NCBI GenBank assembly: GCA_004022145.1 | Contig: RCNU01000028.1 | Strand: one strand, 5' to 3' | Length of the DNA stretch: 64,000 nucleotides | Origin: Paecilomyces variotii | Lineage: Eukaryota | Shown: positions 4,738-54,249 of the stretch, in pieces | Layout of the letters: every line of letters begins with the position of its first letter | How positions within the stretch are numbered: position 1 is the first letter of the stretch | Notes under the pieces: model-generated | Told to the model about the DNA's origin: nothing | The model's input: the letters and a program-made list of their open reading frames with translations, nothing else | The model's database searches: none | Position numbers and translations under genes: made by a program

Positions 4738-4740
4738 AAT

Positions 4741-4758
4741 TGGAGCCAAATACGGGGG
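4741..4758 (+). promoter_or_regulatory. Putative primer-binding site (tRNA not assigned)
   Basis: TGGAGCCAAATACGGGGG starts 3 nt after the 5' LTR; degenerate rc versions lie next to the LTRs at 18331 and ~39770. Confidence 0.55.
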
Positions 4759-10953: not shown

Positions 10954-11599
10954 AAATGTCAGTTTAGAAGGAGAGAAGTAGAAAGCTAGCAGTGAAGCAA
11001 GTTTAATGCTAAGTAAGAATGCTACGATAGGAAGAGAAGGAGGGTGAACTTAAGATAAGGGCGTCTTTTTTTGGGGAGGGGAAGGATTTAAAGATGCCTG
11101 AAGATAATTAAGAAAGAAGAAAAAGAGAGATAACTGAAAAACACGTGATATTGGCTTAAATACCTTGAAAAAGTCTATAAATAAAGCCAAAAATAGAAAA
11201 TATTAGATAAAGAATATAAGTAACAAATAAAGAATTCTTACCTTATTATAAAAACCTTATTTTTTATATTATATAACACCACAGCGGAAGTGACTGGAGA
11301 CTAAATTAAGCTAAACTTAACCCTATCTTACCTTTTAAGTATATCTTTTTACTTAGAAACTATTTTGAAGAGTTGCTTTATGAAGATATGCATTAAAAAT
11401 AGAAAAAAACGCACTAGAAATATGAAATATTATCTGTTAGGACAAAGCTTTTTAACTCAGAATATATATATATACTACAGTTAGCAAAATTTGTGAGCTT
11501 ATAAAGGAGATAATAAGTAAGGCCAATAATAAAGAAGAGAAGGTTTAGTTTATAAGTAATATAGCAGCAATTATTTCAAATTTTTAAAGCAGGCACGAT

Positions 11600-14280
11600 A
11601 AAGCAGCTAGTAATTTTTATAATTTCCTGAACTAATAAAAGCTATTAGAAGAAGTAAGAAAGAAAAAAGTACTAGCTGTTAATAAGCTGAAAGAATTAAA
11701 AATATAAACAGAAAAGAACTATAAATATGCTAATAAAGGTTATTATAAAGCCATAGAGAAATAGGGCTAAGAGACTATAGACTAAGTCTTGTTGATTATT
11801 AGAAAGTTATACTAGACCTTAGTAGCTATAGGAGGATTAGCTTTTAATACTAGAGACTAGAGAATAGCGGCTGTGTATCTAACAAGAGTATAGGTTAATA
11901 GACTTTATAATATTAGGAGATAAAGAATATTAACTGAAAAGAGCCTTTAACTAACTAATATTAGAAAGGCAAGAGATATCTTAAGAAAAGCCCTCAGCGG
12001 AGAAAGACTAATTTTTTAAAAGCCTATTAATAAAAAGCTATAAGAGGTTAGAATAAGAGTAGGGGAGAATAATCTTCTAGAGGAGATTATGGGAGAAGAG
12101 AAAGAATATCAGATAAAAGATTTAGGTGAGAGTTTATTAATAGATCTGATATTAGATAAAAAAGAGAAAAGCATAGAGGAGGAGGAAAAAGGGAAAAAGA
12201 AGATTAAGAGTCCTAAGAAGCCGAAAGGGGAAAAGAAGCTTAAGACTTAAGATAAGGAGAAACAGCTAGAAAAAGGATGTGAATATAAGGTTGGCATATC
12301 TATATTAATAGAAAAGGCTATTGCTAACCTAGAAGGCGAAGAAGTACTAGAACTTTTAAGGGAAGAAAGGATTAAACCCGCTGCTATATGCTAAGTTTAT
12401 GTTAAAAAAGTATAAAGCGTAATAGGACTGAGGAGTGCAGAAGATAATATCTTTAGAGAAAGGTTAAAAACGCTTATAGATAGTGACGATAACTTCAAAT
12501 CCTAGAATACTAATATAGACCACTGGAAATGGTTTTAATGGGGATAGAGACTTAACGCTAACCTCGAGGATTATTGCTGCCTGGATAAGGGGGAAACTAA
12601 AGCATAATCCTGGCTAAGTGGACTAAATATAAGCGCTGAGGAGGTCGGAGAAGTTTTACAGTAGGTTGATTCTAGGAAGATTAACTTAATCTGCGAGCCT
12701 TATATATAATTATTGGCCAATATAATTAGCATAAGGGAGGATATGTCTATAAAAGAAGCTAGAGGAGTATTAAAAGCAGTAAGAAATATAAAGCTGGCAG
12801 TAGTAAAGCAGTAGAAGAAGGGATTATTTAGAGCAATAACCCATCCTTATAGAAGTTTACTTGAAGAAACCAAATAGTCTATAAATAAAACCTCTAGAGG
12901 TAAATAGGTAACAGAACCTCCCAGCAGAGCCTTAGGAACTAATATAAAGCCCTCCTTTTCTGTGGTAAACCTGGAAGACTCCTTTATTAAAAAAAAAACC
13001 GGGCACCCGAAAGATATACAAAACACTAGAACTGTATAATTTAAAGATAATATAGAGGCTAAGCAGATACTAGGCACACCCAGCAATAGCTAGGTTGAAG
13101 GAAGAATAAAGAGTCCTATTCTAGGAAGTCCTAAAAGCATAGAAGATAGAGATAATACAAAAGTTAAAGAATCCTTATCTAAAGACCTTCTCCTCAAGAA
13201 ATCCCCGGCGTTAGGGATAGTTTAACTGTTTAGAGATCTTGGGTTAATTAATACAGATACTTCTAGTGATATACCGAGCAGTTTGTACTGTAAAGTCTGA
13301 GATAACCTATATAAGGCTGAAGAGTATCCCGAATCTAAGTATGGGGATAAAAAACATTTTAACCTAAGCGAAGAAGACTTTACCCTGAATAAGATACGGG
13401 ACTAATATATTTAGTTAAGTATTGCAATAAGGGAGGACTTTAACTATTGGGAAGCGAATGGGGTTTTCTAGATTATACCCTTTGAAGGGAAACTGGTAAA
13501 AGGGATATTATAATATGCTACTACAGAAGCGAAAATAGCCCTTTATTATAAGAAGGAGGGTGAAGGAATAGTAGGGCTTAAGAACTTATCTAGGAGTATT
13601 CTCTAGAAGGTTGTTGTGTAAGATATCCGGATCTATTTGATCTGGTTAGTGCTATATAGTTACGGCGAATACAGGCTATAGGTCCGGTATCTCAGAGGAT
13701 ATAAGCTAAGAGCATTAAATATAGAGACTGCTATCCCTAAGGGAGGAATAGGCTAAAGCTTTATAACCCTGGGAACTGGACTAATTGCCAGAGATAAATC
13801 TGAGGAAACTATAGGCTTAAGAGATATTGTACTTAGGCGGGGAGAAGTAACTTTTGTTAGTGATTTGTATTAGCTAATATTAGAGAATTAGGGAATAAAT
13901 CTTAATAGTATCTGCTGTTTTGATTATAGGGAGTAAGATAAGATAAGATTTGACTAAGAAGGATCCGGGCCTTTTAATATCTAGGTAAATAGAGTTATAG
14001 CTATAGGCAGAGCGATACTCAGTTAGCTAAACTGGGATTGCTTAGAAGTCGAAGCAGAGCTATACTTTATACTAAAGCAAGATATATTATCAGTTCGAGA
14101 TTATCTGCGGAGGAAAGGAACTCAGCTTTATGAGTTAGGGGTTTTAAGGTATATATAACACTAGAAACTGGAGCATTCCTGCTTTAGAAACAATTTATAG
14201 TATTAGAAGGAGGAGATAGTGTAGACTGTAATAACTAAGGAAGGCAGATGGGGGCATTTGCTCTCGGAGGAGGGGAGGCT
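11600..14280 (+). pseudogene. Extra sense-strand relic ORF (ORF3) of unknown function between integrase and the 3' LTR
   Basis: Hand translations of 11642-~12030 and 12422-~14280 fall in the same frame, with only RIP-derivable stops. The N-part is E/K-rich. The region is also present in copies A, C and D. Confidence 0.65.
14266..14278 (+). other. Polypurine tract
   Basis: GGAGGAGGGGAGG just before the 3' LTR; an rc version follows the LTR at ~22464. Confidence 0.85.
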
Positions 14281-30800: not shown

Positions 30801-31199
30801 TTATAGTTAAGGAATAAATAAGGCTTTATAAAGCCTAGAAGCGGGATATAGCTCGGCCCAGCCGGGGCTAAGCTTAGCTTACCTGAAAAGCTCAGCCCAC
30901 CTAAGAAAAATCTAGGTTCAGCTCAGATACTAAGTTAGTTTCAGTATAGTATTTAGGTGGGCTTAGCATATATATAGCTTATATAACTTACAATAAAGTT
31001 TTTATATTATATTGCAGTAAACTATATTTGTCAGAAACTATATATAACATATGCTCTATACTATATTACAGCATATGCTGAGCGTAGGTTAGAGTAATGC
31101 TAAGATATATACAGGGAGCTAGAACTAATATTATTCTGCGCGGTTTATTAAGGCGGTATATATAAAGGCGGTTATTAAGCATATGCTAAAGCAATGTTA

Positions 31200-32990
31200 G
31201 AATCCTGTTGCATAGAAGTTTGCATTATTTATATTATCTTTAACCTCCTTAATAATACCTTCGCCCTGCCTCTATAGCACTATAGTTTACTCTCTTATAT
31301 TACTGCTATATAACTATAAAAATGCCGCTGTATTTAAAAGAACTCCTTACCTATAATACAGTTTTATCAGCAGATAATCTAACAAACTATAAATATTACT
31401 ATAGTAAGTATATCTCCGCTTAATATTAAGCATATACTAAATAAAAATAGGCCCAGTTCTTAACCTAAATCTAATATAGATCCTAGACTTACACACCGCA
31501 GCCAAGCAGGAAAATAAAAAATCTAGTAAGTAGATATTGCGCATATACTAGAAGCATACTAAATATAGACAGTGCCTGCGATTACCGCTGAGAAAAACGC
31601 CTATATATTAACCCCTAAGTCTTCTATCTTAAGCGTAAACAGGAACATATAAGTCCTTTCTTTAAAATTAACTGAGTATATACTGAGCTTCTATAGTTGC
31701 TAGGTATAGATAAATATAAATAACCTACTTATATACAGTAAGGTTATTAATTTGCAGCCTACTATAAGTCTAATATAAGTTCTGCATATATATAATATAC
31801 TAACAGTTAAAGTTATAACACTATATAAGGACCGCATACCCGAGGGCGAGTATATTATTATCCTTAATATATACTAGATATATACTAATCTGCTATAGTA
31901 TTAAACTGCAGTGCAGAGACTAGTAATATAACTATAGATAAAAAGATAATTAAGCTATAATAAGTTTAGGATCTATTCCGCATATACTAGAGCTATACTA
32001 ATAATATATAGTATACTAATTAAATATATTTTGCTCAGCAAGTAGCAAGATGCTAATTTTATTTATAAACTATAGTAAGTCTTAGGCATATGCAGAGCTT
32101 ATATTAAGCTAATATTTCTTCTAGTACAAGAAGTATACTAATTAAGAGTATTATTATATCCTATAAAGAAATAGCTTATATTAATAATAAGTTCAGAAAC
32201 AGCTATAAGAGCTAGTTTTATTAGAGAGTAAGTTTAGTATATGCTAATATATAAATAGGATCTATATGCTATCTTCTTTGCTATTTATATTGCTATTTAT
32301 ATTGCTATTTATATATAACTTATAACTCTTAGTAGGCTTTTTAGATATATTTAATATATGCCTAATATTAACTTTAATTAATCTTAGCCTTTATTCTAGT
32401 ATCCTATACCTTTATTAACCCTATCTTATAAGCGCGCAGTAAGTATACCTCTACCTATATTATATATATGCTAACCTTATATAAACCGGAAATATTTTAT
32501 TACCGTAAGATAATAATAACAGAAGTAATAATAAGTAGCCTTCTAATTTATCCTGCGTATATATTAAACTAGGTTATAATATAAGTCTTACCTTAACTCT
32601 ATTAAAGCACAGATAGTTTATATCTTATAATAAATATGCGAGTAGATATACTATTAATAAAGAAACACTAACTAAACTAGAATATAGCTATACTTATAGT
32701 TATAGCTATAAATATTCTTATAGCACTAATAGCCGCAGTGCTAAGTTTATTAATAAATTTTTCCCTTTTATATACAGAGTATATACTGAGTTTATATCTA
32801 TAAGTTATAATCTTCTCTTTTAAGGATAAGTTTTTAAAGGCCTTAAATATATAGATATTTAAGCCCAGCTCTCCCCTAAGCATATATTTAATGCCGAACT
32901 TTAGTTCAATACTAAACTCTTATATTTAAAGATTATTAATGCCGAACTTCGGTTTAATACTAAGTTCTTATACTTAAAGATTATTTTTCT
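31200..32990 (-). pseudogene. Relic ORF-L of TIR element copy 1 (unknown product; boundaries approximate)
   Basis: The ORF-track fragment 32677-32883 is homologous to 50970-51176, and copy 2 reads on with RIP-type stops. Confidence 0.45.
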
Positions 32991-33190
32991 ATATCTTTAA
33001 ATAATTGCAATATAATATTCTTTATTTTTTTATTTATTCTTATTATAGGGGAAAAGGAAATATATATATATATTTACTATATAACTATAGCTATATAGAT
33101 ATATATATTTATTATATAAACTACTGTAATAATCTTTCTCTTTCTTACTTAAATTCTTATTGCCTTTACTCTATTATTTCTCTTAATTAA

Positions 33191-36100
33191 ATAGCAAAAT
33201 CAGTCTCTGCTATTTCTTCTAATAAGGGTCCTCTGCTATAGTATATATAAGCTCTATTCTATCTAGAATCTATACTTAACTCCTAAATAATATATGCCAG
33301 ATATAGAGTTAGTATATGCTCTAGATTAGAATTAGTAGAGCTATCTGAATCTAATAAAGGGGTTTAAACCCTTCTAGGTATTAGGATAGTATTAAATTAA
33401 ACCTGGCCTTAAATATAACCAGAATCTCTAGGTCTACCCCTTCCTTAACCTCTATTTAGCATATGCTCTTTACTTAATCTGCGTTAAGAAATGTGATCTG
33501 AGTCTAATTCTTTAGAGCTTAGCTTAGTCTGCTTAGTCCTAGATTAAACCTGGCTCTGACAATAACCAGAACCTCTAGGTCGACCCCTTCCTTAATCTCT
33601 ATTCGGCATATGCTCTGCACTTAATCTGTGTTAAGAATAACAATCTGAGTCTAATTCTTCAGAGCTTGGCTTAGTCCGCTCAGTCTTAGATTAAACCTAG
33701 CTCTAATAATAACTGGAACCTCTAGGTCGACCTCTTCCTTAACCTCTGTTCGGCATATGCTCTGCACTTAATCTGCGTTGAGAATAACGATCTAAGTCTG
33801 ATTCTTCAGAGCTTAGCTTAATCTGCTTAGTCCTAGATTAAACCTAGCTCTGACAATAACTGGAACCTCTAGGTTAACCCCTTCCTTAACCTCTGTTCGG
33901 TATATACTCTGCATTTAATCTGTATTGAGAATAATAATCTAAGTCTAATTCTTTAGAGCTTGGCTCAGTCCGCTTAGTCTTAGATTAAACCTGGCTCTGA
34001 TAACAACCGGAACCTCTAGGTCGATCCCTTTCTTAATCTCTTCCTTGACCTCTATTCGGCATATGCTCTGCACTTAATCTATGTTGAAAATAACAATCCG
34101 AGTCTAATTCTTTAGAGCTTGGCTCAGTCTGCTCAGTCTTAGATTAAACCTGGCTCTAATAATAACCGGAACCTCTAGGTCGACCCCTTCCTCAACCTCT
34201 GCTTAGTATATGCTCTATAGATGTTTTATCTCTAGCCGGTATATATTCAGCAGAAGGTTTAGATGAGGATATTGAAATAACCTTAAAATTAGCATTTTTA
34301 TTAGAAGATCGATTATTACTATTATCTAAAGATATATTATAGGGATTATTAGGATTAAATAGTAAATAAGATTAATTCATTTAATAATTAGCAGCTCTTT
34401 AATTCTATTAGTCTAAAAGATATATTTAGCATATGTTTAAAGGCATATTAAATTTTTATCTTACTATTTTTCTGCATCTGTTAAGAGATCCGCATAGTAT
34501 TACTATAGTTTTGCTATATATTATTAATATTATAGCTAAAAAGCTCTTATTATTTAGTAATATCTTCTATATATTATTATAGACTAAATATAAATTAGCC
34601 TTATTAGTATTTAATCTATGCTAGACAGATGCTAAGCATATGCTAAGTATAGATATACTATTAAATAGCCCCTAGTAAAGATAGGTTTCTCCCTATATTA
34701 TAATTATCTTAGAAGTAACTACTTTCAGATAATCTAATATGCTTTTAAGTATAACTCTACTATTTAAAAAGGATTTTTAATATTTCCTATAATAATATAG
34801 TAAGAATCTATAGTTTTATTTTACTTTAAAGCCATTTTTTAATATCTAGATATTCCTTACCCTATTAGTGTATAGTTTGAAGGATTTCTTAGTAAGAATA
34901 TAGATCCTATAGATATTTCAGTTAATAGATAAGGAGATAAGATCTTTTAAACTTTTTACGGAAATTGCGTTTAATATATATTTAGCAAAAGATAAGTATA
35001 TGCTTAAGATATTCTTACTAGTTAAGGGAAGGATAAATAGAATACAAGTAGTTATTAAAACCTAAATATACTTAGTATATACTCTGCATCTATTAAGATA
35101 ATACTAACTAAGTGCTTATTTCTTATATATATCTATAGTAATAGTCTGTATCCCTTCTCTATTTAAAATATGTGCCCATTAAATATATTAATATGCAGCT
35201 TATAATAATATTTAAAATAGTAATTCAAATATTTAAAAATATATGTAATAAGTTTATAGAGAGATAAAAGCATAGCAATAAGTATCGATCCCTAACATAA
35301 AGTTAGCATATGCTAAATGTATAATAAGGAGAAGTTAAACATATATCTAGCTTCAGAATTCTAGCTTAAGATTAAAAAGATATTTATATTTCTAAGTATT
35401 ATCTTATAAGCTAAATCTATTTTAAGATATTTAGCTTTTATAAATACTTTTACTTAAGCATTTATATAATAAATAATAATATATTCTCCAGTTTTACTAA
35501 TATTAACTATATAAATCTATTATTTGTTACTTTCTCTGCATTAGTTAAACTTATACTCTCACATAACCCCTATATAGTATTAATATATGCAAAATATATA
35601 GTAAGAATAGATTCTAACCAGCAATATCTAAATTAAATAAGTATTGCAGAAGTTTTTGTTTTTAAATTAAATAAGCAATTTTATCCTTAATATTTAAAGA
35701 AGCTCTAATTGAATTTAGAGCTTAACCTTAATACTTTTATTTAAACGCATATACTTTAGGAGATATTAAGAATTTATCTATAAGTATTTAGTTAGCATAT
35801 GCAGAATGCAGGCTTAAGGTATATATAATATACGCGCAGTTATAATAAGAATATCTCCTTAGTTAATTAGATCTGTAAGTTCTTAAGCAAAATCTTAACT
35901 CAACTTAGTTGATAACAGAAGAAAATATATATAATCTTCTTAATAAATAAGAAGGATAAAAGGAAAATAATCTTAATTATAAGGAATAAAAATATTAATT
36001 AAAGTATTATATTCTTTATATAAGACTTTAGATATATCTTAAGAATAGTTAAATCTTAAACCTATAATTAGTATATGCCTAGTATATATAGAGTAAATAC

Positions 36101-37500
36101 CTACTGCAAGTTGTATGCCTTAAAGTAGTATAGTTAATATAGGTATAAGTAGATTAAATAGGAGTATTAATACTATATATTCTATAAGCTACTAAGATAT
36201 ACAGATAAAGCATATAAATTTAAGCTATATATATAGAAATAGCTTATATAATATACTATAATTTAAAATTACTTGCTAATAGGCAACTAATAAAGGTAAC
36301 TAGTAGCTAAGGATATATTTAACATATGCTAAGATTAAATATAGAGTTAAACTTATTTTATGCCGTTTAAAGATTACTAGAGTTTAATTTAAGCATACCT
36401 ATATTTTACTTTCTAGATAAAAATAATGCTCTGCTAATTGTTAATTCTAAAAATAAAAAAATCTATTATATTAATTTTTAGTTTCTCTTTTAAGAAATTT
36501 ACTAGCAGAAGTAGTATTAGATACATAGCCTGCTTCTTTATAAAGCGTTTTAAAGATATTTAGTTTAATATAGCTATATTTATAGCATTATCTAAGCATA
36601 TGCTCCGGCATATACTTGCAATATTTAATACCGCTGCATTTATATGCCTAATAATATGCCTTACTTTAAATTTTGTCCTTTTTATCCTTTTAAAGAAGTA
36701 GGAGAGATAAGGTCTTATAATTGCCTTAAGTATAGAGCCTAAACTAGATCTAAGCTATACTTAGTATATGCTTATAATATATTAAATATCTGCTTAAGAT
36801 AAGGTATAGATATACCTTTAATAAAAGTTATTGAAATATTTAATAGATATTTATACTAGAATAATTATAAAGTAAAGGATTCTTTTAGTAGATAAAATGC
36901 AAGATACTATTAAAATAAGTTATTAGATATTTAAGAATAGATAATTTATTCTGAACATTATTAACTATAATCTCAGAGATATTACTACGGCTAATAATAA
37001 TGCCTATAAGAGAAATAGCCTCCTAGATATATTTAGTATATGCTCTGCTAAAACTTATATAAAAAGAATATATCTAATTAAGTCCTATATAAAGAGGAAA
37101 TTTAAGATATATCTTAAATTTTTTATTTTTGCTTTTTATATAGGAATAGATACTGCTTTAATTACTTATTATATCCTTAAACTAGTTTAAATATACTTTA
37201 TAAAGATTATAGTTCTATATAAGTTTGCTCTATAATAAGTTAGTATTTAGTTTAAATATAATAGATGCTAAGTATATGCTTAGCGTCTGCTAGGCCTCTA
37301 TAAGAATTATATTAATATACCTAAATAGGAATATTATGCAGCTATTAACTAAGAATGCTATTAACTTAGCTATTAGTTATAATTACTTAGTTCTTAGCTA
37401 TTTTTAAGTATTTAAGGAAAAAGTAATAATACTTAGCTTTATATTAGCTATTATATATATATATATTGCAAATTCTAAAGAGTTTTATTATATAAATATT
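33191..37500 (+). pseudogene. Relic ORF-R of TIR element copy 1 (~1,400 codons, candidate transposase; no motif recognised)
   Basis: ATA (from ATG) GCA AAA TCA GTC... The same frame passes through the 49-codon repeats into DVLSLAGIYSAEGLDEDIEI at 34220. Frame continuity further 3' is less certain. Confidence 0.45.
33394..34217 (+). repeat. Tandem repeat, 147-bp unit, ~5.5 copies
   Basis: Units start at 33394, 33541, 33688, 33835, 33982 and 34141 (the fifth has a 12-bp internal duplication). Confidence 0.93.
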
Positions 37501-40111
37501 ATTATTAATCCTTAAATAGGCTAATCTTATATTAATTATGCAATCGGCTTATACTAAGCTTATACTTAATCTGTGTATAAGGTGGGTTAAGCTCAACCTA
37601 GCCAAGGATAAGCTCTAGGGTAGGCTAAGCTCCTAGGGTGGGCTAAGCTCGGCCCCGGCTGGGCCGAGGTATATGCCCGCCTAGAAGATAATCTAATAAG
37701 GTCTTTAATAGATATTTAAACTTTAGTATTTAGAATCTAGTTTATAATATCTACTATATCTATAGTTCTCTTTAGTTTATTTACTATTTTAAACTTTTTT
37801 AGAGATAGTTTTTCTTTTATCTTAATTATTTTCTTGCTTTTATCTAGTTTAAGTATTTTTTTTATATTTTTATCTATTACTCTTACTTACTTAGTTGCAT
37901 TTAATAGCTAATAATTATTAAACTAGTTTATTTTAATTAAGGAGAATTTTTACTTTTATTTAATTACTCTTTGCAGTTTTTCTTTATATTATTATTTAAT
38001 CTTATTTTATCTTTTTTTTATTCTTTAAGGCTTCTTTAATCTTATTATATTAATTAAATAGTAATTTTCTATAATATCTTTAGCTTCTTCCTTAAAGCTT
38101 AAATTATTATTAGTTTATTTTAGTATAATAAACTATATATTATATTTAACTAAATTAACTTACTTTTATTTCTTCTTTAATCTCTATTTAATAATTACCT
38201 TTTATAATATATTTCTTTAAATAAGGCGAATAACTTCTCTATTTTGCCTTTTTAGTTTAAAGTAAAGTTTATAGTTTTTTTCCTAATAAATAAATTTCTA
38301 ATTTAAGAGGTTTTTTAAATTTAAGTAATAAGATTAAATATAATTAAGAGCCTAATAAAAGTTATATAAGTTTAGAGGAATTTTAAATCTTTTAACTAGT
38401 ATAAATCTTAAAGGTACTTTAACTTATATATTTATACTAGTATTAGGTATGCTAATATTAGGCTTTTTTATATACTGTATACTATATAGCTTTAATTTCT
38501 TAAACTCCTTTATTAATTAATTAATCTATAACTATTTTACTAACTTTATCTTAGTAATTTATTATATAGACTTATTCTTAACCTTATTAAAGTAAGTTTT
38601 ATTAAGTTTAATAAAAAGTTAAGTATTATCTTCTTCTATTATTTTCTCTTTTATTAAAACTGTTATTTCTTAATTATTTTTAGGTTTATTATTATTAAGA
38701 TAATAAAGAGTTTCTATAGTTTTTACTTTATCTACTATTTTTTTATAGAATTTTATATATTTAATAGTAGCAGGGGTCTAATAGTCTATATTTAGCTCTT
38801 AAACTACTTATTACTTAAACTCCTCTAAAAGTCCTTAAAGATATTAAACTCCCTGTAAGTATTAACTTAATTTACCTAATATTACTAAAGCTTCTAATAT
38901 AGCTTAATATTCTTAATTATATTTTTTTAGGTCCTTAAAGCTATTATATCTTATATTCTTAAACTTTTCTAGCTATTAAATATTATATTTCTTTTAATAC
39001 TTATTATAATAAGTATATTCTTATTTAATTACTTCTGCTAATTTTAGATAATTCTTTTTCTTATATTTAAGTTAAGTACTTATCTATAATAATACTAATA
39101 GGCTATAATAATCTATAAATTATTCTGTCTTTTTTACTTCTAGAAGTTAATTTACTTTATATAATCTTTTAAAAAGCCTTAGGTAATAAGTAATATTATT
39201 ATCTTTAAAATAAAGTACTCTTAAATTTCTAGGTATTAGTATTTATAAGGCTAATATAACTTAAATTAGCTGCACTATTAATAGTCTTATATTCTTTAGT
39301 ATTTAAGCTATTTATATCTTTAAACTTAATAATACTAAAGAGCTAAAAGTCTTTTTACTTTAATTAATATTAAAAAGATTTATACTTTTTTTTATATTTT
39401 TTTAAATAAATAGTAATAAAGATAATAATAAGAAATTCTTCTACTTTTTATTAAATAATTCTTGCTTTTTAACTTTTAATTCTCTTTAAATTTTTACTTC
39501 TCTTTTATATTCTTTAAGCTCTTTTTTTAGCTTAGCTATTCTTTCTTCCTCTTATTAATAATATATATTCTTAATCTATTTTATATTTATTATCTCTACT
39601 AATTTATAAGATATATTTATTTTTTTTTATTTATAGTAGTAATCGCCCTTAATTATTTTATTTATCTTTTTACTGCTATTTATTTCTTTCCTTAGCTTTA
39701 TTCTTAACCTTAACTCTTAATTTTTTTTTCTCCCTTATTTCTGCTTAATATTTAAATATCTCTTATATTTAACTCTATTTTTATTATAGGAAGATATATT
39801 AAGACTTAATATAAAGTCTTTAAGCGAGTAAGTATTAAGAAAGAAGAGAAAAGTATTTAACTTTAAAGCTTAGAGTAAAGTTAAAAGAGAAGCTTTAGCT
39901 ATAAATTAATATAATAAACTAATAATAATCTAATACTAAACTAATATTAAATAATAATAAAAAGATAAAGCTAATTATTTTATTCTGAATAATTAAAAGG
40001 TTTATTTTATTTTTTCCTTTACTACTTTACTTATAGACTTTTAAAGACTTTAAGTAAAAGCATATAATCTCTTAACTAATTATATTCTTCGCGCTAATTC
40101 TCCTTACTATA

Positions 40112-44900: not shown

Positions 44901-45996
44901 AAGTATAAGAGAGAGAAAGTTAAGTTACTAGATAATAAATAAAATACTAAGAAGTTATATTAAGCAATATTTATATTAAATCTCTTACCTCTAGATATTA
45001 ATATAGACTAAGAGAAGTATATAGAATAAGTATTAAATACTATAATAGTAATATATATAGTAAAGGAATATATTTTAATCTTAAACTTATATTATACTAT
45101 AATTAATAACTTTACTTAAAGTAAATTATAGTAGAATATATTTAAAGCTAAAATAAATATACTCTAAGTAAATAAAATTTTTAAAATAGTTATATTATTA
45201 CTAAAAGCTAATATTATAATTAACTATTAAGTATTAGCTATAAAATATAACCTAGATAATTCTCTTTAAAAGCTTAAGATATATCTTATTACTTAAGAGT
45301 TTACTTAGAAATATAGTATTAATTTTAAGTATACCTTTATTCTTATCTTATAATATAATATACTATAAGTATTCTTAGCTATTATTATAATAGAGAATTA
45401 TAAGTATTATACTATAAATATTAATAATACCTTTATAGAGTTAATATTAAAAGAGAAGATTTATATAATACTTTTATTAAGAATAAATATACTATTAAAA
45501 ATAATACTAAAAGTTTTTTAATCTCTATATAGTTTAAAATAAGCTATAAGAGATTAAAATTAAACTTATATAAAAATACTTTAAAAAATAAGTTTTATAT
45601 AAACTAATATTAATTTATACTTATTATAGCACTTAAAGAAAGAGATCTTACTCTTAATATATATTAATAATATCTTAATTAATATAAAATAAATAAAGAA
45701 TATTTATTAATTTAAATAAGAGTTTAAATTAATATATAAAATAAAGAATCTAGAAGAAATAAAGAAAATTCTTAGTATTTAAGTTATTTAAAATAAGAAG
45801 GATTAAATATTAATAATAGACTAATCTTATTATATTAAAGAACTCTTATTATAATATAGAATAAGTAAGAAAAAAATATATTTAGTTAATATCTTATTAA
45901 ATAAATATAACTCTTTAAAACTATTTAGTCCTTAAGATAAAAGAGTAAATTAGAGAAAGTATTAAAGAATTATTAATAGCTTAATTTACTTAATAA

Positions 45997-46491
45997 TAGA
46001 GTAGTTATATAGGCGGTTCGGTTCGGTTCAGGGGGGGGGTTAAACCGCCCGTAGCGGTTTTCGGTTCGGGGCAGATAAACCGTACCTGAACCGAACCGTA
46101 TACTAGTAGTTCGGTTTAAAACCAAAAAAACCGGATCGGCATAATTAGTTACTAACCTAAGTTAGATCCGGTTATATAACTATGCTCTAGCTATATTAGG
46201 ATAAATAAGCGAAAATTACAATACCGTAATTTACCGATTTCTAATATATTTTTATTATATATACTAAATACTATAGTAATTTTATACCTCCGATATAAGT
46301 ATCGATAAATTACATAGTGTAATTTAAATACGAGGTTAAAATTACGGTTCAAATGGTTTAAACCAAAAACTACCGGTTCGGTTCGGTTCTAGTAGACTCG
46401 CACCGCGGTTTACTAGGAAGCGAACCAAACCGAACTATGGGCGGTTCGGTTCGGTTCGGTTCGGTTTTTTCGGTTTACTATAACTACTCTA
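45997..46491. mobile_element. hAT-like non-autonomous element / MITE (495 bp)
   Basis: 13-bp perfect TIR TAGAGTAGTTATA, 8-bp TSD CTTAATAA (45989-45996, 46492-46499), and subterminal (CGGTT)n/(AACCG)n arrays. Confidence 0.85.
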
Positions 46492-47140
46492 CTTAATAAT
46501 TTTAATAAGACTAGATATTATATTTATAATAGGTAAATTAAGTTAATATTTATTAAATCTATTTAAAAAGTATTTTAAGATATTAAAGTCTTTTATAAAA
46601 TACTTATAATTAATTATATATCTTAGTCTTAAGTTTAATATAAACTAAGACTAATAATTTATTAAGTACTTAGACTTAGATAGGCATATACCTCGGCCTA
46701 GCTGGGGCCAAGCTTAGCCCATCCTAGGAGCTTAGCCCACCCTAGAGCTCATCCTTAGCTAGGTTGAGCTTAACCTACCTTATATATAGATTAAGTATAA
46801 GCTCAGTATAAGCCGATTATATAATTAATATAAGGTTAGCCTATTTAAGGATTAATAATAATATTTATATAATAAAACTCTTTAGAATTTATAATATATA
46901 TATATAATAGCTAATATAAAGCTAAATACTATTACTTTTTCCCTAAATACCTAAAAATAGCTAAAAACTAAGTAACTATAACTAATAGCTAAGTTAATAA
47001 TATTTTTAATTAATAGCTACATAATATTTCTGTCTAAGTATATTAATATAATTCTTATAGAGGCCTAGCAGATACTAAATATATACTTAGTATTTATTAT
47101 ATTTAAACTAGATACTAACTTATTATAAAGTAAACTTATA

Positions 47141-47332
47141 TAGAACTATAACCTTTATAAAGTATACCTAAACTAGTTTAAGAATATAATAAGTAATTAA
47201 AATAATGTCTATTCCTATATAAAAAGCGAAGATAAATAGAACTATAACCTTTATAAAGTATACCTAAACTAGTTTAAGAATATAATAAGTAATTAAAATA
47301 ATGTCTATTCCTATATAAAAAGCGAAGATAAA
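47141..47332. repeat. Perfect 96-bp tandem duplication
   Basis: 47141-47236 is identical to 47237-47332; single in copy 1. Confidence 0.9.
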
Positions 47333-50300
47333 AAATTTAAGATATATTCTAAATTTCCTCTTTATATAAGACTTAATTAAATATATTCTTTTTATATAAG
47401 TTTTAATAAGGCATATACTAAATATATCTAAGAGGCTATTTCTCTTATAGGTATTATTATTAGCCGCAGTAGTATCTCTAAGATTATAGTTAATAATATT
47501 TAGGATAAGTTATTTATTCTTAAATATCTAATAACTTATTTTAGTAATATCTTGCATTTTATCTATTAAAAGAATTTTTTACCTTATAATTATTCTAGTA
47601 TAAATATCTATTAAATATTTTAATAACTTTTATTAAAGGTATATCTATACCTTATCTTAAGCAGATGTTTAATATATTATAAGCATATGCTAAATATAGC
47701 TTAGATTTAGTTTGGGCTCTATACTTAAGGTAATTATAAAACCCTATCTCTCCTACTTCTTTAAAAGGATAAAAAAGATAAAATTTAAAGCAAGACATAC
47801 TATTAGGCATATAAATACAGCAGTATTAAATATTATAAGTATATGCTAGAGTATATATTTAAACAATGCTATAAATATAGCTATATTAAACTAAATATCT
47901 TTAAAACGCTTTATAAAGAAGCAGGCTATACATTTGATATTATTTCTGCTAGTAAATTTCTTAAAAGAAAAACTGAAAATTAGTATAATAAATTTCTTTA
48001 TTTTTAGAATTAATAATTAGCAGGGCATTATTTTTATCCAGAAAGTAAAATATAAATATGCTTAAATTAAACTCCGGTAATCTTTAAACAGTATAAAGTA
48101 AGTTTAACTCTATATTTGATTTTAGCATATGCTAAATATATTCTTAGCTACCAGTTACCTTTATCGGTTGCCTATTAATAAGTGATTTTAAACTATAGTA
48201 TATTGTATAAGCTATCTCTATATATATAGCTCAAATTTATATGCCTTATCTATATACCTTAGTAGCTTATAGGATATATAATACTAATACTCCTATTTAA
48301 TCTATTTATACCTATATTAACTATATTATTTTAAGGCGTATAACTTATAGTAGGTATTTGCTCTATATATACTAGGCATATACTAACTATAGGTCTAGGA
48401 TTTAACCACTCTTAAGGTATATCTAAAGTCCTATATAAAGAATATAATGCTTTAATTAATATTTTTATTCCTTATAATTAAGATTATTTTCCTTTTATCC
48501 TTCTTATTTATTAAGAAGATTATATATATTTTCCTCTATTACTAACTAAGTTAAGTTAAGATTTTGCTTAAGAACTTATAGATCTAATTAACTAAAGAGA
48601 TATTCTTACTATAATTATGCGTATATTATATATACCTTAAGCCTGCATTCTGCATATGCTAACCAGATACTTATAGATAAATTCTTAATATCTCCCGAAG
48701 TATATACATTTAAATAAAAGTATTAAAATTAAGCTCTAAATTTAATTAGAGCTTCTTTAAATATTAAGGATAAAATTGCTTATTTAATTTAAAAATAAAA
48801 ACTTCTATAATACCTATTTAGTTCAGATATTGCTAGTTAGAATCTATTCTTACTATATGTTTTATATATATTAATATTATATAGAGGTTATACAAGAGTA
48901 TAAGTTTAATCAACACAGAGAAAATAATAAATAATAGATTTGCGCAGTTAATATTAGTAAAACTAGAGAATATATTATTATTTATTATATAAATGCTTAA
49001 GTAAAAGCATTTATAAAAGCTAAATATCTTAAAATAGATTTAGCTTATAAGATAATACTTAAAAATATAAATGTCTTTTTAATCTTAAGCTAGAATTCTA
49101 AAGCTAGATATATATTTAACTTCTCCTTATTATATGTTTAGCATATACTGACTTTATATTAGGGATTAATACTTATTGCTATACTTTTATCTCTCTATAA
49201 ACTTATTATATATATTTTTAAATATTTAAATTACTATTTTAAATATTATTATAAGCTGCATATTAATATATTTAATAGGCATATATTTTAAATAAAGAAG
49301 GGATATAGACTGTTACTATAAATATATATAAGAAATAAGTACTTAGTTAGTATTATCTTAATAAATACAGAGTATATGCTAAATATATTTAGGCTTTAAT
49401 AACTACTTATATTCTATTTATCCTTCCCTTAACTGGTAAGAATATTTTAAGTATATACTTATCTTCTGCCAAATATATATTAAACACAATTTCTATAAGA
49501 AGTTTAAAAGATCTTATCCCTTTATCTATTAACTAAAATATCTATAGGATCTATATTCTTACTAAGAAATCCTTTAAACTATATACTAATAGGGTGAGGA
49601 ATATCTAAATATTAAAAAATAGCTTTAAAGTAAAATAAAACTATAGATTCTTACTGTATTATTATAGGAAACATTAAAAATCTCTTTTAAATAATAGAGT
49701 TATACTTAAAAGTATATTAGATTATCTGAAAGTAGTTACTTCTAAGATAATTATAATATAGGGAGAAACCTATCTTTACTGGGGGCTATTTAACGGTACA
49801 TCTATACTTAGCATATACTTAATATCTATCTAGCATAGATTAAATACTAATAAGGCTAATTTATATTTAGTCTACAATAATATATAGAAGATATTACTAA
49901 ATAACAAGAGCTTTTTAACTATAATATTAATAATATATAGCAAAACTATAGTAATATTATGCGGATCTCCTAATAGATACAAAAAAACAATAAGATAAAA
50001 GTTTAATATGCCTTTAAATATATGCTGAACATATCTTTTAGACTAATAGAATTAAAGAGCTATTAATTATTAAATGAATCAATCTTATTTACTATTTAAT
50101 CTTAATAATTCCTATAATATACCTTTAGATAATAGTAATAATCGATCTTCTGATAAAAATGCTAATTTTAAGGTTATTTTAATATCTTTATCTAAACCTT
50201 CTGCTAAACATATACTAGCTAAAGATAAAATATCTATAGAGCATATACTAAGCAGAGGTTGAAGAAGGGGTTAACCTAGAGGTTCTGGTCATTGTCAGAG

Positions 50301-50869
50301 CTAAGTTTAATCTAGGACTAAGTAGACTAAGCTAAGCTCTGAAGAATTAGACTCAGATTATATTTCTCAACGCAGATTAAGTGAAGAGCATATACTAAAC
50401 AGAGGTTAAAAAAGGGGTAGATCTAGAGGTTCTAGTTATATTTAAGGCTAGGTTCGATTTAATACTATCCTAATACCTAGAAGGGTTTAAACCTCTTTAT
50501 TAAATTTAGATAGCTCTGCTAGTTCTAATCTAAAGTATATATTAACTCTATATCCGGCATATATTATCTAGGAGTTAAGTATAGATTCTAGATAGAATAG
50601 AGCTTATATACGCTATAGCAGAGGACCCTTATTAGAAGAAATAGCAGAGACTAATTTTGCTATTTAATTAAGAGAAATAATAGAATAAAGGCAATAAGAA
50701 TTTAAGTAAGAAAGAGAAGGATTATTACAGTAGTTTATATAATAAATATATATATCTATATAGCTATAGTTATATAGTAAATATATATATATATTTCCTT
50801 TTCCCCTATAATAAGAATAAATAAAAAATAAAGAATATTGTATTATAATTATTTAAAGATACAGAAAAA

Positions 50870-52620
50870 CAGTCTTTAAGTATAAGAACTTAGCATTGAA
50901 CTGAAGTTCGGTATTAACAATCTTTAAGTATAAGAGCTTAGTATTAAACTAAAGTTCAGCATCGAGCATATGCTCGGGGGAGAGCTAGGCTTAAATATTT
51001 ATATATTTAAGGCCTCTGAAAACTTATCCTTAGAAGAGGAGATTATAACTTATAGATATAAACTCAGCATATACTCTGCGTATAAAAGAGAAGAACTTAT
51101 TAATAAACTTAGCACTGCAGCTATTAATACTATAAGGATATCTATAGCTACAATTATAAGCACAATTATACTTTAATTTAGTTGGTATTTCTTTATCGGC
51201 AGTATATCTACTTATATATTTATTATAAGATATAAACCATCCGCGCTTTAATAGAGTTAAGGCAAGACCTATATTATAACCTAGTTCAGCATATGCGCAA
51301 GATAAATTAGAAGGCTACTTACTATTATTTCTATCATTATTATCTTGCGGCAATAGGATATTTCTAGTCTATATAAGGTTAGTATATATATAACGCAGGC
51401 AGGGGTATATTTACTGTGCGCTTATAAGATAAGGTTAATAAAGATATAGGATGCTAGAACAAAGGCCAAGATTAGTTAAAGTTAATATTGGGCATATGCT
51501 GAATATATCTAAAAAGCCTGCTGAGAGTTATAAGTTATATATAAATAGTAATATAAATGGCAATATAAATGGCAAAGAAGATAGTATATAGATCCTATTT
51601 ATATATTAGCATATGCTAAACTTATTCTCCGATAAAACTAGCTTTTATAGCTGTTTCTGAACTCATTATTAGTGCAAGCTACTTTTTTACAGGATGTAGC
51701 AATACTCTTAATTAGCATGCTTCCTATATTAGAAGAAATATTAGCTTAATATAAGCTCTATATATGCCTAAGACTTACTATAGTTTATAAATAAAGTCGG
51801 CGTCTTGCTATTTGCTAAGTAAAACATATTTAATTAGTATACTGTATATTATTAGCATAGCTCTAGTATATATAGAACAGATCCTAAACTTACTATAGCC
51901 TAATTATCTTCTTATCTATAATTATATTATTAGTCTCTATATTGCGGTTTAATGCTACAGCAGATTAGTATATATTTAATATATATTAAGGATAATAACA
52001 TACTCGCCCCTAAGTATATAGTCCTTATATAGTGTTGTAACTTTAACTGTCAGCATATTATATATATATAGAACTTATATTAGACTTACAGCAGGCTATA
52101 AATTAATAATCTTACTATATATAAGCAGGCTATCTGCGTTTACTTATACTCAGCAACTATAGAAGCTCAGTATATGCTTGGTTAATTTTAAAGAAAGGAC
52201 TTATATATTCCTGTTTATGCTTAAGATAAAAGACCTAAGGATCAGCATGCGGGCATTTTCCTCAGCGGTAATTGCAGGCACTATCTATATTTAGTATGCT
52301 TTCAGCATATGTGCAATATCTGCTTACTAGATTTCTTATTTTCCTGCTTAGCTGTAGTGTGCGAGTCTAGGATCTATATTAGATTTAGGTTAAGAACTGG
52401 GCCTATTTTTATTTAGCATATGCTTAATATTAAGCAGAGATGTACTTACTATAATAATACCTGTAGTTTGTTGGATTACCTGCTAATAAAACTACATTGC
52501 AGGTAAGGAGTTCCTTTAAATATAGCAGTATTTTTGTGGTTGTACAGCAGTAATATAAGAGGGTGGACTGTAATACTATAGAGGCAGAGTGAAGGTGTTA
52601 TTAGGGAGGTTGAAGATAAT
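50870..52620 (+). pseudogene. Relic ORF-L of TIR element copy 2 (unknown product; boundaries approximate)
   Basis: ORF-track fragment 50970-51176, plus a downstream frame with RIP-type stops (e.g. YWAYAEYI at ~51486). Confidence 0.45.
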
Positions 52621-53540
52621 ATAAATAATGTGAACTTCTATGCGATAGGATTCTAACGTCGCTTCAGCATATGCTTAATAACCGCCTTTACATATACCGC
52701 CTTAGTAAACTGCGCAGAATAATATCAGTTTTAGCTCCCTATATATATCCCAGCGTTGCTCTGACCTATGCTTAGCATATGCTGCAATACGGCACAGAGC
52801 ATATGCTATATACAGTTCCTGACAAATATAGTTTATTGCAATATAATATGAAAACTTTATTATGAGTTATATAAGCTATATATATGCTAAGCCCACCCAA
52901 ACGCTATACTGAAACTAACTTAGTATCTGAGCTAAACCTAGATTTTTCTTAGGTGGGCTGAGCTTTTCAAGTAGGCTAAGCTTAGCCCCGGCTGGGCCGA
53001 GCTATATCCCGGACTTAGATTATATAATAGATAAGATTAATTAGATATTAATCTTAGAGAATATTTTTACTTTAACTAAAAGCTTAATAAGCTAATTAAA
53101 TAAAAAATAAAAGTTTATTATAATTTTAACTATAAAGGCTAAATATATAGCTATATATTAAGCTATAAAGTAGTCTTAATAATTAGCCCTTCTTTTAAGA
53201 GATATAAGATATAAATACTATATTAGTCTAAATAAATTTAAGCTAATAATAAGAGAAAAATAAGCTTTTATTATTAATTCTCTAGTTAAAATCTATAGAG
53301 ATAACTAAGTATTATTATTACTAATTAAAGATACCTATATTTATAAAAGGTTAAAGTATATTAATATTATATATTACTATATATATAACTTATATTAAAA
53401 GAATAAAATTAATATTAAGTTTATTAGAATATAGAATATAATAGTAAATAATTTTACTAAACTACTATTAAAAACAGACTTCTTAAAATTTTTAAGTTAA
53501 CTAAGATTAACTAACTTAATAAGTATAAATTAAGGAGAAG

Positions 53541-53810
53541 TATTATAAAATAGTAATTAAGACTAATAAATTCTAATATAATAAAGATTTTATTTTAAGA
53601 AAATCTTTAAGAATAATTTTACTTTAATAAAATTAAGCAGCTTTAAAAAACTATTTCTTAAGCTTTATTTAAAATCTATTGCCCTAACTAAGAATATATA
53701 AATATACTTAATATCTACTATATGTGCTAATACTTTTTCTCCCTAATTATTATTAGCCCTTTAAGTTAATTAAATAGTCTAGGGAATTTTATTTAAATCT
53801 ATTCTTTTTA
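53541..53810 (+). repeat. Copia 3' LTR
   Basis: Direct repeat of 41651-41920, preceded by a purine tract. Confidence 0.88.
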
Positions 53811-54249
53811 ACTTTTTTTAATTAAAAAGATTAAGTTAAAGTTTTAATTATAAAATAATATTATTATTAATAATATTAAATAATTAAAATTATTAGTAAA
53901 ATAAAGTATTATTTAAAGAGACTATATTATTATACTTCTTATAGAGATAATAATAGTTAAAAAGAATAGAGAATAAAATAACTTTTTATACTAGCTTTAA
54001 AAGAAAGTATAACTTAAAATAAGAATAAAGTATAAGAAATAGAACTAATACTAATATATCTTTATAATATAATTAGTTAATTATATTAAGTTAGTTAAGT
54101 TCTTCTCTTAAGCTAATATACTTACTATAAGAATTCTTCTATTAAGCTAACTATTTTCTATAACTATATATATAATTATTTTAGACTTTTTTATAAGAGA
54201 ACTTCTTATATATTCTCTTTATAAACTGCTAGTTTTAACTGCTATATTA

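Follow-up and report, generated by a model that had tools for sequence, protein, structure and literature searches.

Background

The locus described here raises a simple question: why should one short palindrome recur along the whole length of a transposable element and almost nowhere in the DNA around it? The locus is a stretch of 64,000 nucleotides (nt) of contig RCNU01000028.1 (assembly GCA_004022145.1) from the fungus Paecilomyces variotii, referred to below as the window. The element, present there in two copies, is bounded by long terminal inverted repeats (TIRs) as well as by target-site duplications (TSDs). A first-pass annotation made from the letters alone had remarked on the octamer GCATATGC within the element and had offered two explanations, namely binding sites for a dimeric, element-encoded protein or footprints of a repeated mutational or insertion process. 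By the comparisons reported here, the palindrome A-GCATATGC-T is a family-specific cis motif of a Mutator-like element (MULE) family of Pezizomycotina, and we tentatively favour the first of the two explanations.

The two copies and their ends are as follows.

30842-37679, minus strand (by the transposase gene): copy 1 of the TIR element, 6838 bp
46681-53011, plus strand (by the transposase remnant): copy 2 of the TIR element, 6331 bp, inverted relative to copy 1
30834-30841: left TSD of copy 1, CCTAGAAG (9 bp if the adjacent base is included)
37680-37687: right TSD of copy 1, CCTAGAAG
46673-46680: left TSD of copy 2, GACTTAGA
53012-53019: right TSD of copy 2, GACTTAGA
30842-30906, plus strand: TIR end A of copy 1, beginning CGGGATATAGCTCGGCCCAGCCGGGGC
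37614-37679, minus strand: TIR end B of copy 1, beginning CGGGCATATACCTCGG, with GCTTAGCC(C/T)ACC subterminal repeats
37669-37676: decayed motif copy inside TIR end B of copy 1

CGGG stands at both termini of both copies, TIR arms of at least 64 nt with GCTTAGCC(C/T)ACC repeats next to them are common to the two, and each is flanked by a perfect TSD of 8 bp, or of 9 bp if the terminal C is counted as target. The TIR arms at 30843-30906 and 37614-37677 are 64 nt long and 78% complementary, with the subterminal repeats lying further inward.

The palindrome is confined to the element

All 22 intact copies of GCATATGC in the window lie within the element, 11 per copy, at precisely the positions given by the first-pass annotation, and none lies elsewhere. 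Chance would supply next to none: 100 dinucleotide shuffles of the window yielded 0.16 copies on average (standard deviation 0.39, maximum 2), and 200 such shuffles of each copy yielded means of 0.10 for copy 1 and 0.07 for copy 2, with a maximum of 1, in agreement with the earlier estimate of well under one copy by chance. When the 8-mers of copy 2 are ranked by observed over expected count under an order-2 Markov model, GCATATGC comes first (11 against 0.18).

The two copies are 91% alike and differ by 611 transitions and 3 transversions, a bias that is, by its form, the signature of repeat-induced point mutation (RIP). The products of RIP expected from GCATATGC are GTATATGC, GCATATAC and GTATATAC, and these were counted jointly as GYATATRC. 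The degenerate form occurs 54 times (29 in copy 1, 24 in copy 2 and one at 43492), with 32 decayed and 22 intact matches, which bears out the many decayed forms noticed at first reading; 53 of the 54 thus fall within 13.2 kb of element DNA, where 200 dinucleotide shuffles of each copy give 0.84 per copy on average, and the remaining 50.8 kb contains one. The 42.8 kb of flanking DNA, equally AT-rich and RIPed, holds no intact site and one degenerate one where shuffling gives a mean of 1.98, in keeping with its not having been noticed before in the flanking retroelements. The core reads ATAT at every site, with no variant cores, and the 26 occurrences of CATATG in the element are flanked by G..C in 22 cases, by A..C in two and by G..T in two. 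Since the word contains the RIP targets CpA and TpG and variant cores are lacking, RIP destroys the motif and did not make it.

The consensus is a 10-bp palindrome, A-GCATATGC-T (the word AGCATATGCT), with T/A weakly and symmetrically preferred at -3/+3; after symmetrisation, 77% of cases show A at -1 and T at +1, and the upstream flank is conserved as well as the downstream one. Alignment of the two copies gives 34 site positions per element at a mean spacing of 204 bp (median 156 bp). They cover the entire 6.9-kb alignment and are not restricted to the terminal few hundred bp, so that the description of the motif as scattered throughout the element holds good, and the first motif arrays lie at 110-340 bp from the element ends. 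Six of the 34 are copies of one 147-bp tandem repeat and hence non-independent, which among copy 1's 11 intact sites applies to four (33459, 33606, 33753 and 34059); sites outside this repeat have nothing in common in their flanks beyond about 14 bp.

Distribution of the sites within the element

To place the sites, the coding remains of the element are needed. They were located by protein homology, as described further below, and by the 3-periodicity of purines and pyrimidines (R/Y).

33052-37016, minus strand: in copy 1, RIP-degraded homologue of a fungal, MULE-like transposase (phmmer, colinear tblastn high-scoring segment pairs (HSPs), R/Y 3-periodicity)
about 37016-36531, 36035-35820, 35775-35617, 35570-35343, 35289-35107 and 35065-34664, minus strand: mapped exons of copy 1
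34359-33052, minus strand: C-terminal frame of the transposase of copy 1, downstream of the mapped exons
33388-34281, minus strand: 147-bp (49-codon) tandem repeat of copy 1, six units, each encoding ..SAEHMPNRGRGRGRPRGSG.. and one in-frame motif (EHM)
30907-33051: arm of copy 1 without an identified gene, with coding-like R/Y 3-periodicity at about 31322-32100 and 32400-33000
47438-50802, plus strand: transposase remnant of copy 2 (tblastn HSPs at 47438-49805, remainder by alignment with copy 1)
50173-50466, plus strand: 147-bp repeat region of copy 2, two units, 600 nt missing relative to copy 1

The 34 aligned sites are distributed as follows.

Arm without an identified gene (2.2 kb): 13 sites
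N-terminal gene part, exon and intron not separable: 7 sites
Coding tandem repeat: 6 sites
Homology-defined introns: 3 sites
Mapped exons: 2 sites
C-terminal coding frame: 1 site
Directly downstream of the last mapped exon: 1 site
TIR: 1 site

The intact copies of GCATATGC stand at these positions.

Copy 1, arm without an identified gene: 31071-31078, 31179-31186, 32086-32093
Copy 1, tandem repeat: 33459-33466, 33606-33613, 33753-33760, 34059-34066
Copy 1, past the last mapped exon in an intron-like context: 34636-34643
Copy 1, intron 3: 35306-35313
Copy 1, intron 1: 35795-35802
Copy 1, N-terminal gene part: 36596-36603, with a decayed partner 12 bp away at 36608
Copy 2, gene part: 47683-47690, 48125-48132, 48652-48659 (the last in intron 1)
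Copy 2, arm without an identified gene: 50966-50973, and sites starting at 51289, 51492, 51609, 52416, 52667, 52775 and 52799 (each ending seven positions on)

Eleven sites fall in the frame 33052-35340, where the motif begins at codon position 3 in seven cases (EHM/EHI), at position 2 in two (SIC/SIY) and at position 1 in two (AYA/VYT). As all three phases occur in one homology-defined frame, the motif is not a peptide-level signal. The first-pass annotation had placed it inside two open reading frames (ORFs), ORF-L and ORF-R, in different frames; the difference of phase stands, within the RIP-degraded transposase frame, but neither ORF is open, there being no intact ORF in the element and no stop-free stretch longer than 94 amino acids (aa). 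The three phases and the sites in introns, in the TIR and in the arm without an identified gene support the view, already taken at first reading, of a signal that is specific to the element and acts at the DNA level, as opposed to an effect of peptide or composition.

Gene-less relatives in metagenome contigs

Metagenome contigs were scanned for three copies of GCATATGCT at 132-162-bp spacing, and at least 112 loci (L001-L112) were returned, most of which are, to judge by their spacing, other short-period tandem repeats. The word GCATATGCT was seen within more than 100 such repeats, with periods of about 10-160 bp, on diverse contigs; because it is so common there, a search by motif spacing alone is a poor way of finding relatives. 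We took L074, L076, L056 and L108 as relatives and excluded L112, L018, L021, L014 and L026 as other repeat types.

L076, 9391-10523: TIR element of 1.13 kb whose subterminal repeats are GGGGTCAC, TSD of 7/8 bp
L108, 873-1367: 0.5-kb TIR element with an 8/9-bp TSD, AAGCCAAG(C)
L056: contig end resembling the right end of L076, a partial member
L074: non-RIPed contig of 1.5 kb whose start resembles the L076 subterminal region, a partial member

The terminal signature CGGG-N3-7-AGCTCGG, searched for in the 541 kb of loci and in the 64-kb window, was found only at end A of the window element (2 copies), at both ends of L076 and at one end of L108; about one chance match is expected in that amount of sequence, and the matches sit exactly at the inverted ends of motif-rich segments. 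Between those ends the sites are dense. L076 holds 17.7 per kb and the remainder of its contig 0.1; for L108 the figures are 16.2 and 0. The intact motif is absent from 9.4 kb of L076 and 4.8 kb of L108 outside the elements. L074 holds 8.4 sites per kb, with 11 intact sites in 1.5 kb. The three copies that the scan requires at a locus do not account for counts as high as 11 intact and 9 decayed, nor for the TIR signature or the TSD. The flanks in L076 are symmetric up to CTTAGCATATGCTAAG, and its adjacent sites stand 11-12 bp apart, about one helical turn; adjacent repeats of 11-12 bp also occur in L056. The flanks in the gene-less derivatives of 0.5-1.1 kb are TAAG, not TAAC, on both strands.

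Compared by blastn with the 112 loci, the two copies gave low-complexity matches only, as did six-frame blastp against the four relatives; tblastn of the family proteins against the 112 loci gave no real match, the TIR pattern had no match in the metagenome contigs, and a dynamic-programming intron model of L074 offered too many candidate introns to discriminate among them. Conservation of the motif in relatives whose other sequence differs is supported by these comparisons. The subterminal repeats differ as well: GGGGTCAC, present four times at each end of L076 (9391-9490 and 10400-10523), is distinct from the GCTTAGCC(C/T)ACC of the window element. TGAC is the core of WRKY-type W-boxes, and the TGAC inside GGGGTCAC would suit a transposase domain of WRKY-GCM1-like type.

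Motif copies beside intron branch points

Frame changes between colinear HSPs, over gaps of about 41-56 nt, define four introns in the transposase gene.

Intron 1, 35776-35819, minus strand: GCATATGCTAAC (site 35795), 13-16 nt before TATAG
Intron 2, 35571-35616, minus strand: further-decayed motif GCATATAT followed by TAAT (GCATATATTAAT) before TATAG, outside the 34 counted sites
Intron 3, 35290-35342, minus strand: TTTAGCATATGCTAAC (site 35306), 9 nt before TTAG
Intron 4, 35066-35106, minus strand: after the ..DMCKKQAxG exon, GAGTATATACTAAG (site 35075) before TTTAG

The fungal branch-point consensus is CTRAY, and the branch-point-like words here are CTAAC or CTGAC in two introns and CTAAG or a RIP-decayed form in the others; TAAC preceded by the motif's last two bases makes GCTAAC, and its distance from the 3' splice site is the usual one. 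These four introns account for three of the 34 sites, and the context is intron-like at about five others. Of the 1372 nt that were mapped, about 184 nt are intron, with 3 counted sites, and about 1188 nt exon, with 2. The strict branch-point word T[AG]A[CT] follows the motif at four of the 34 sites on the gene strand and at one on the opposite strand.

Between the DMCKKQAxG and GDYL exons, the homologues P0017, P0024 and P0026 have 17-18 extra residues (RLCICLAYVKPMLTRIG, RMRICRHCARHVLKFYL and MLSICWWYVMHMLTHLYL) which the spliced models P0019, P0020 and P0022 do not have. Homologues predicted without splicing thus make the motif visible as matching peptides in the same intron: ..CICLAYV..PMLT.. 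in P0017, ..RIC.. in P0024, ..SIC..HMLT.. in P0026 and, after the same exon, LHMLT in P0004. Among the RNA contigs of libraries X19 and X20 no joint was listed at the homology-defined introns, and the one GT..AG joint seen, 35137->35427 (in a single X20 contig, with 3 letters between and side 23), lies elsewhere; with libraries that may contain DNA and copies that RIP has killed, this has no bearing on the splicing of intact elements.

A degraded Mutator-like transposase

Stop-codon maps of the merged two-copy state made no reading frame visible, and Pfam on six frames of copy 1 (stops read as X) returned no family, FoP_duplication (E 0.036) and Nbl1_Borealin_N (E 0.0081) both being below cut-offs. 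RIP makes transitions only, so the R/Y sequence is left intact and can be used for coding periodicity; with a retroelement remnant as control, its 3-periodicity shows most of the element to have once been coding. When 34282-35340, stops read as X, was searched by phmmer, 15 proteins came up at E <= 1e-3; all are short fragments, and the best E value is 3.2e-15. A profile of these fragments led to proteins of greater length from Aspergillus alliaceus, Penicillium argentinense and Tricladium varicosporioides, and a second profile search added homologues from Elaphomyces granulatus, Hypoxylon and Annulohypoxylon. Intact members with a locus name are BDW43DRAFT_304052 and BDV23DRAFT_169155 (A. alliaceus), N7532_001510 (P. 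argentinense), BGZ60DRAFT_165405 (T. varicosporioides), V8E54_013796 (E. granulatus), F5Y13DRAFT_196782 (Hypoxylon sp.) and F4781DRAFT_434338 (Annulohypoxylon). The long homologues are all named 'hypothetical' and none has a precomputed Pfam domain; judged from these matches, this is a Mutator-like family of Pezizomycotina without prior annotation at the Pfam level. With P0017-P0021 as queries, tblastn resolved the gene into six colinear exons, which run along the minus strand in copy 1 (37016-34664) and the plus strand in copy 2, at E down to 1e-19, and picked up a weak similarity in the C-terminal linker as well.

By inspection, alignment A3 of the family has the order EMDLxFKMV (D), TVDMCKKQA (D), LxxCxxHxxRxF (CxxH) and HTGISESSH (E), and we infer that these D, D and E residues are the catalytic ones. 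A CxxH after the second catalytic D is common to MULE and hAT transposases, according to the excerpted text of PMC5225508, and the fungal family has its CxxH between the second D and the E. The MULE profile PF10551 matched the first-D region (profile positions 2-52 of 61) in three of the eight long homologues, P0020 (E 0.042), P0022 (0.097) and P0023 (0.12), all under the 27.6-bit cut-off. In a protein-language-model Atlas, the best named cluster for P0020 residues 40-450 scored 0.96 with 189 shared features and 78% of its members MULE, and MULE was shared by all ten best matches of P0020. The excerpted PMC5225508 also lists long TIRs and TSDs of 8-10 bp as MULE features, with 8 or 9 bp for Muta1, and the window element has both. 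From the residue order, the sub-threshold PF10551 matches, the Atlas, the long TIRs and the 8/9-bp TSD together, we file the element as a divergent MULE, with catalytic-domain evidence that leans positive. Membership of hAT was considered and rejected, as the TSDs depart from the nTnnnnAn pattern, the TIRs are long and only a short distance separates D from E.

Structural searches gave no fold assignment: a PDB profile search with alignment A3 gave no match at E <= 10, and AlphaFold models had a mean predicted local distance difference test (pLDDT) score of 46.2 with 5 sequences and 60.1 with 25, with no Foldseek match against PDB at E <= 0.001 and template-modelling (TM) scores of at most 0.12. 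Towards the N terminus a C..C..HSH pattern is seen by eye, and the Atlas leads for P0019 180-400 were GCM, FAR1, DBD_Tnp_Mut and AFT, all below 0.9 (0.89 and lower); a Pfam scan of the long homologues reported no N-terminal zinc-finger domain. The WRKY-GCM1 zinc-finger fold has been linked to MULEs (PMC1702500, in the portion available).

At the other end of the protein, the 49-aa repeat reads ..SSKELDSDCYSQHRLSAEHMPNRGRGRGRPRGSG.. on the minus strand of copy 1 and is followed by a coiled-coil-like tail. The repeat is AT-hook-like by inspection (RGRGRPRG), Pfam AT_hook was not reported, and a word-indexed protein search with the frame that contains it and the coiled coil (P0001 145-562) gave no match at E <= 0.01. 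Each duplication of the RGRGRPRG repeat also added one DNA site. The long homologues share a short basic patch and a coiled coil at the C terminus, the patch having grown into RGRGRPRG repeats in P. variotii. The number of 147-bp units varies, and contig joints within the array (X1, X2, X19 and X20) go back 138-474 nt or skip 325-481 nt; they point to further variation in unit number among genomic copies. In the arm at 30907-33051, six X-read frames had no Pfam match and the family proteins no tblastn match.

Mobility and genomic surroundings

Contigs of X1 and X2, which are DNA runs of the same organism, and of X20, a metatranscriptome run, join the flanks of copy 1 directly, skipping 30832->37679, that is 6846 nt or 6838 + 8, and thus reveal an empty paralogous site. 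Contig pieces matching the window at 80% identity or more number 3254 in X1 and 2923 in X2, and their differences are almost all transitions. By these thousands of pieces with transition-only differences, the family is high-copy and RIPed throughout the genome, and by the empty site it is mobile. About 62 outer bp of the end B TIR (at 37618 in copy 1) are shared by contigs of X2, X19 and X20 whose interior is then unrelated, which suggests further elements, possibly non-autonomous derivatives.

Other features of the window are listed here.

47124-47315: 96-bp tandem duplication in copy 2, 94% identical, not present in copy 1
32888-32983: 48-bp tandem duplication in copy 1, in the arm without an identified gene, 88% identical
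45063-45795 and 55158-55890, 45806-45997 and 54956-55147, 46490-46681 and 54775-54966, 53015-53576 and 54219-54780: inverted-repeat pairs around copy 2
59623-64000: rDNA unit, with 18S at 59623-61422, 5.8S at 61608-61761 and, truncated where the window stops, 28S from 61935
56000-59600: GC-rich, presumably rDNA spacer
4000-14000: purine-rich (GC skew +0.1 to +0.3), with steady R/Y 3-periodicity and long single-phase runs

The window is an AT-rich fungal block of 15-30% GC that ends in the rDNA unit, which a graveyard of RIPed transposons directly adjoins. Since the inverted-repeat pairs flank copy 2, that copy is nested in a larger inverted structure of another repeat. The segment at 4000-14000 has the look of plus-strand coding sequence from a retroelement, worn down by RIP.

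What might read the palindrome

We favour, tentatively and at a little short of an even chance, the reading that the palindrome is a set of recognition sites for a dimeric, probably element-encoded DNA-binding protein. The motif has been kept where interior, subterminal repeats and coding capacity are not alike, its flanks are symmetric on both sides, and its highest density is found in derivatives reduced to cis-acting parts; this combination argues for recognition of double-stranded DNA by a dimer. One candidate reader would be the transposase, through its C-terminal basic or AT-hook-like patch and coiled coil, and a second would be a product of the 2.2-kb arm. With many dispersed sites, denser in the small derivatives, such a protein could coat or mark all members of the family, and might thereby serve transposition (synapsis of the ends, recruitment in cis) or open the chromatin, as VANC does for VANDAL MULEs. 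On this reading the transposase gene keeps its sites mainly in short introns, their right half (GCTAAC) doubling as branch point. The enrichment, the motif's DNA-level nature, the MULE-like gene, the placement in introns and the conservation in relatives are observed; that a protein binds, that it is dimeric and encoded by the element, and what its binding would do, we infer.

A bolder form of the proposal, which we think unlikely as a whole, is a 'self code' in a widespread MULE family of filamentous ascomycetes: about one palindrome per 200 bp in autonomous elements and about 17 per kb in miniatures would be read by a dimer (through the C-terminal patch and coiled coil, or as a second product) that holds the members open in the face of heterochromatin or gathers them to transpose, and the introns would have been built around the sites, which would thus provide the branch point too, so coupling DNA marking to splicing.

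Several points weigh against recognition by an element-encoded dimer. The metagenome scan guarantees three motif copies per locus, so that independent evidence is limited to copies beyond the third, to the TIR signature and to the TSD. In all four introns the motif (three counted sites and one further decayed) abuts a branch-point-like word, TAAC, TGAC, TAAG or TAAT, 9-14 nt 5' of YAG. Conservation in the named homologues is known from read-through peptides (HML, SIC, CIC, AYA) and not from DNA. The AT-hook-like repeat is peculiar to the P. variotii element. Finally, the N-terminal lead of WRKY-GCM1 type would more naturally read the subterminal repeats; these being the natural targets of an N-terminal domain, the palindrome may have another reader module or protein.

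Alternative explanations

The strongest competitor is a signal at the RNA level, in which GCAUAUG extends the branch-point region (GCAUAUGCUAAC) and acts as a splicing enhancer or silencer, or as a self-pairing site, that controls the transposase, the other copies being remnants. We consider it unlikely, if worth serious attention. Its case is made by the four introns just described, by the excess of sites in intron over exon sequence and of branch-point words on the gene strand, and by the retained-intron peptides of P0017, P0024, P0026 and P0004. Coincidence with ordinary splice or branch sites, which the first-pass annotation had set against its own reading, is thus real in four introns, for 3 of the 34 sites. 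It does not extend to the 22 sites in the arm without an identified gene (13), the tandem repeat and C-terminal frame (7) and the exons (2), nor to the one in the TIR, nor to those of the gene-less derivatives of 0.5-1.1 kb, which are the densest of all (16-18 per kb) and have 11-12-bp arrays and TAAG flanks on both strands. Moreover, the upstream flank is as well conserved as the downstream one, and an extension of the branch point needs no such flank. Should the intron signal nevertheless prove correct, a transposase gene with one extended branch-point word in all its introns would itself be an uncommon example of splicing under element-specific control.

The sites might instead be bound by a host protein, either a transcription factor or one of chromatin, and have been collected by the element to serve as promoter or enhancer modules or to target or avoid particular chromatin, a proposal that we find distinctly improbable. 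Conservation of the motif across sub-families with differing subterminal repeats (GGGGTCAC versus GCTTAGCC(C/T)ACC) would fit it, as would the promoter-like place of the first arrays. The motif is, however, at or below chance in all flanks examined, in the window as around L076 and L108. Full-text literature containing the 8-mer or its 10- to 12-mers concerned primers and POU or EBNA1 sites, with no fungal transposon among the matches listed (by title), and no fungal factor for this site among them; we know of none that has this palindrome as its site.

Small, too, is the chance we allow to a functionless word that was spread by local duplication, through 11-12-bp slippage, the 147-bp repeat and intron duplication, and by hitch-hiking. 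Duplication has certainly contributed: six of the 34 sites come from one tandem repeat, adjacent 11-12-bp repeats are found in L076 and L056, and the two copies differ in repeat number, as do genomic copies. Against it, flanks outside the repeat have no similarity past about 14 bp, the sites occupy three codon phases in a conserved protein, and the same 8-10 bp recur in elements whose interiors cannot be aligned.

Footprints of a mutational or insertion process, in the form of excision scars or tiny nested insertions, or else an artefact of RIP or composition, are highly improbable: the element is heavily RIPed and hairpin-mediated excision can leave palindromic scars, but the motif is itself a victim of RIP, equally RIPed flanks have no intact sites, variant cores are lacking, the reading frame is kept in repeat and exons, small derivatives have helical-phase arrays with symmetric flanks, and the non-RIPed L074 is rich in intact sites, so that this half of the original proposal is not supported.

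A hairpin or cruciform role was also considered and rejected, a palindrome of 8-10 bp without a loop being too short.

Comparison with known systems

With ordinary branch points the window element shares GCTAAC at the usual distance in its resolved introns; it departs from them in that the seven upstream bases of the motif belong to no general branch-point consensus known to us and most copies are not intronic.

Subterminal transposase-binding repeats are known from Ac/Ds (AAACGG), En/Spm (a 12-bp motif), Hermes and Tag1, and those of the Ac/Ds type occupy the terminal 200-300 bp only and are usually asymmetric. Like them, the present motif comes in many short copies, is kept in non-autonomous derivatives and presumably offers avidity to a multimeric element protein; unlike the Ac/Ds and En/Spm type, it extends throughout 6.8 kb, and separate, sub-family-specific subterminal repeats stand beside the TIRs.

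The EBNA1 homodimer reads an 18-bp palindrome, and a test oligonucleotide holds TAGCATATGCTA (PMC2853575, in the passages available); Arg-Gly-Arg AT-hook-like regions of EBNA1 bind and decondense chromatin (PMC3597695, likewise in part). EBNA1 at oriP thus resembles the window element, as far as those passages go, in its core word, homodimeric reader and repeat array, with RGR regions to set beside the RGRGRPRG of the window frame. It differs in that a sequence relationship is absent (PDB profile, E <= 10), that hosts and replicons are different and that the RGR repeat is species-specific. We treat the resemblance as coincidence or convergence, which would show only that a dimer can read such a palindrome.

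The closest parallel is VANC21, the anti-silencing protein of Arabidopsis VANDAL21 (Hiun) MULEs. In the available text of PMC5735166, VANC21 binds a 9-bp motif, YAGTATTAY, that is enriched in VANDAL21, mainly in non-coding sequence and introns and often in tandem repeats. To the extent of that text, both systems are of the MULE superfamily and have a short motif that is enriched in one family of transposable elements (TEs), at high density, and rare elsewhere. In both, the motif lies along the element, mainly in non-coding sequence including introns, its number shifts by gain and loss of tandem repeats, and its density, more than any one site, seems to matter. As for differences, VANC motifs are arrayed in one orientation and diverge quickly, while the window motif is a perfect, orientation-free palindrome conserved across sub-families (the VANC side again as given in that text). 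The window motif also occurs in coding sequence, is fused to branch points and resides in a fungus with RIP; no VANC-like gene was identified in the window element by Pfam or tblastn on the 2.2-kb arm.

Dispersed, TE-specific binding motifs are therefore already known, and what is new is a palindromic one in a fungal MULE, shared across genera and fused to intron branch points. In practice, the k-mer finds members of this MULE family even after heavy RIP, and the named intact homologues (Aspergillus, Penicillium, Tricladium, Elaphomyces, Hypoxylon) suit tests of binding, transposition and splicing. If the palindrome is indeed a protein-recognition code, it would be the first fungal counterpart of self-recognition by a dispersed short motif in plant VANDAL/VANC elements, and an unusually clean case, being a perfect palindrome that is shared across genera and by autonomous and miniature elements, tolerated in coding sequence and fused to branch points.

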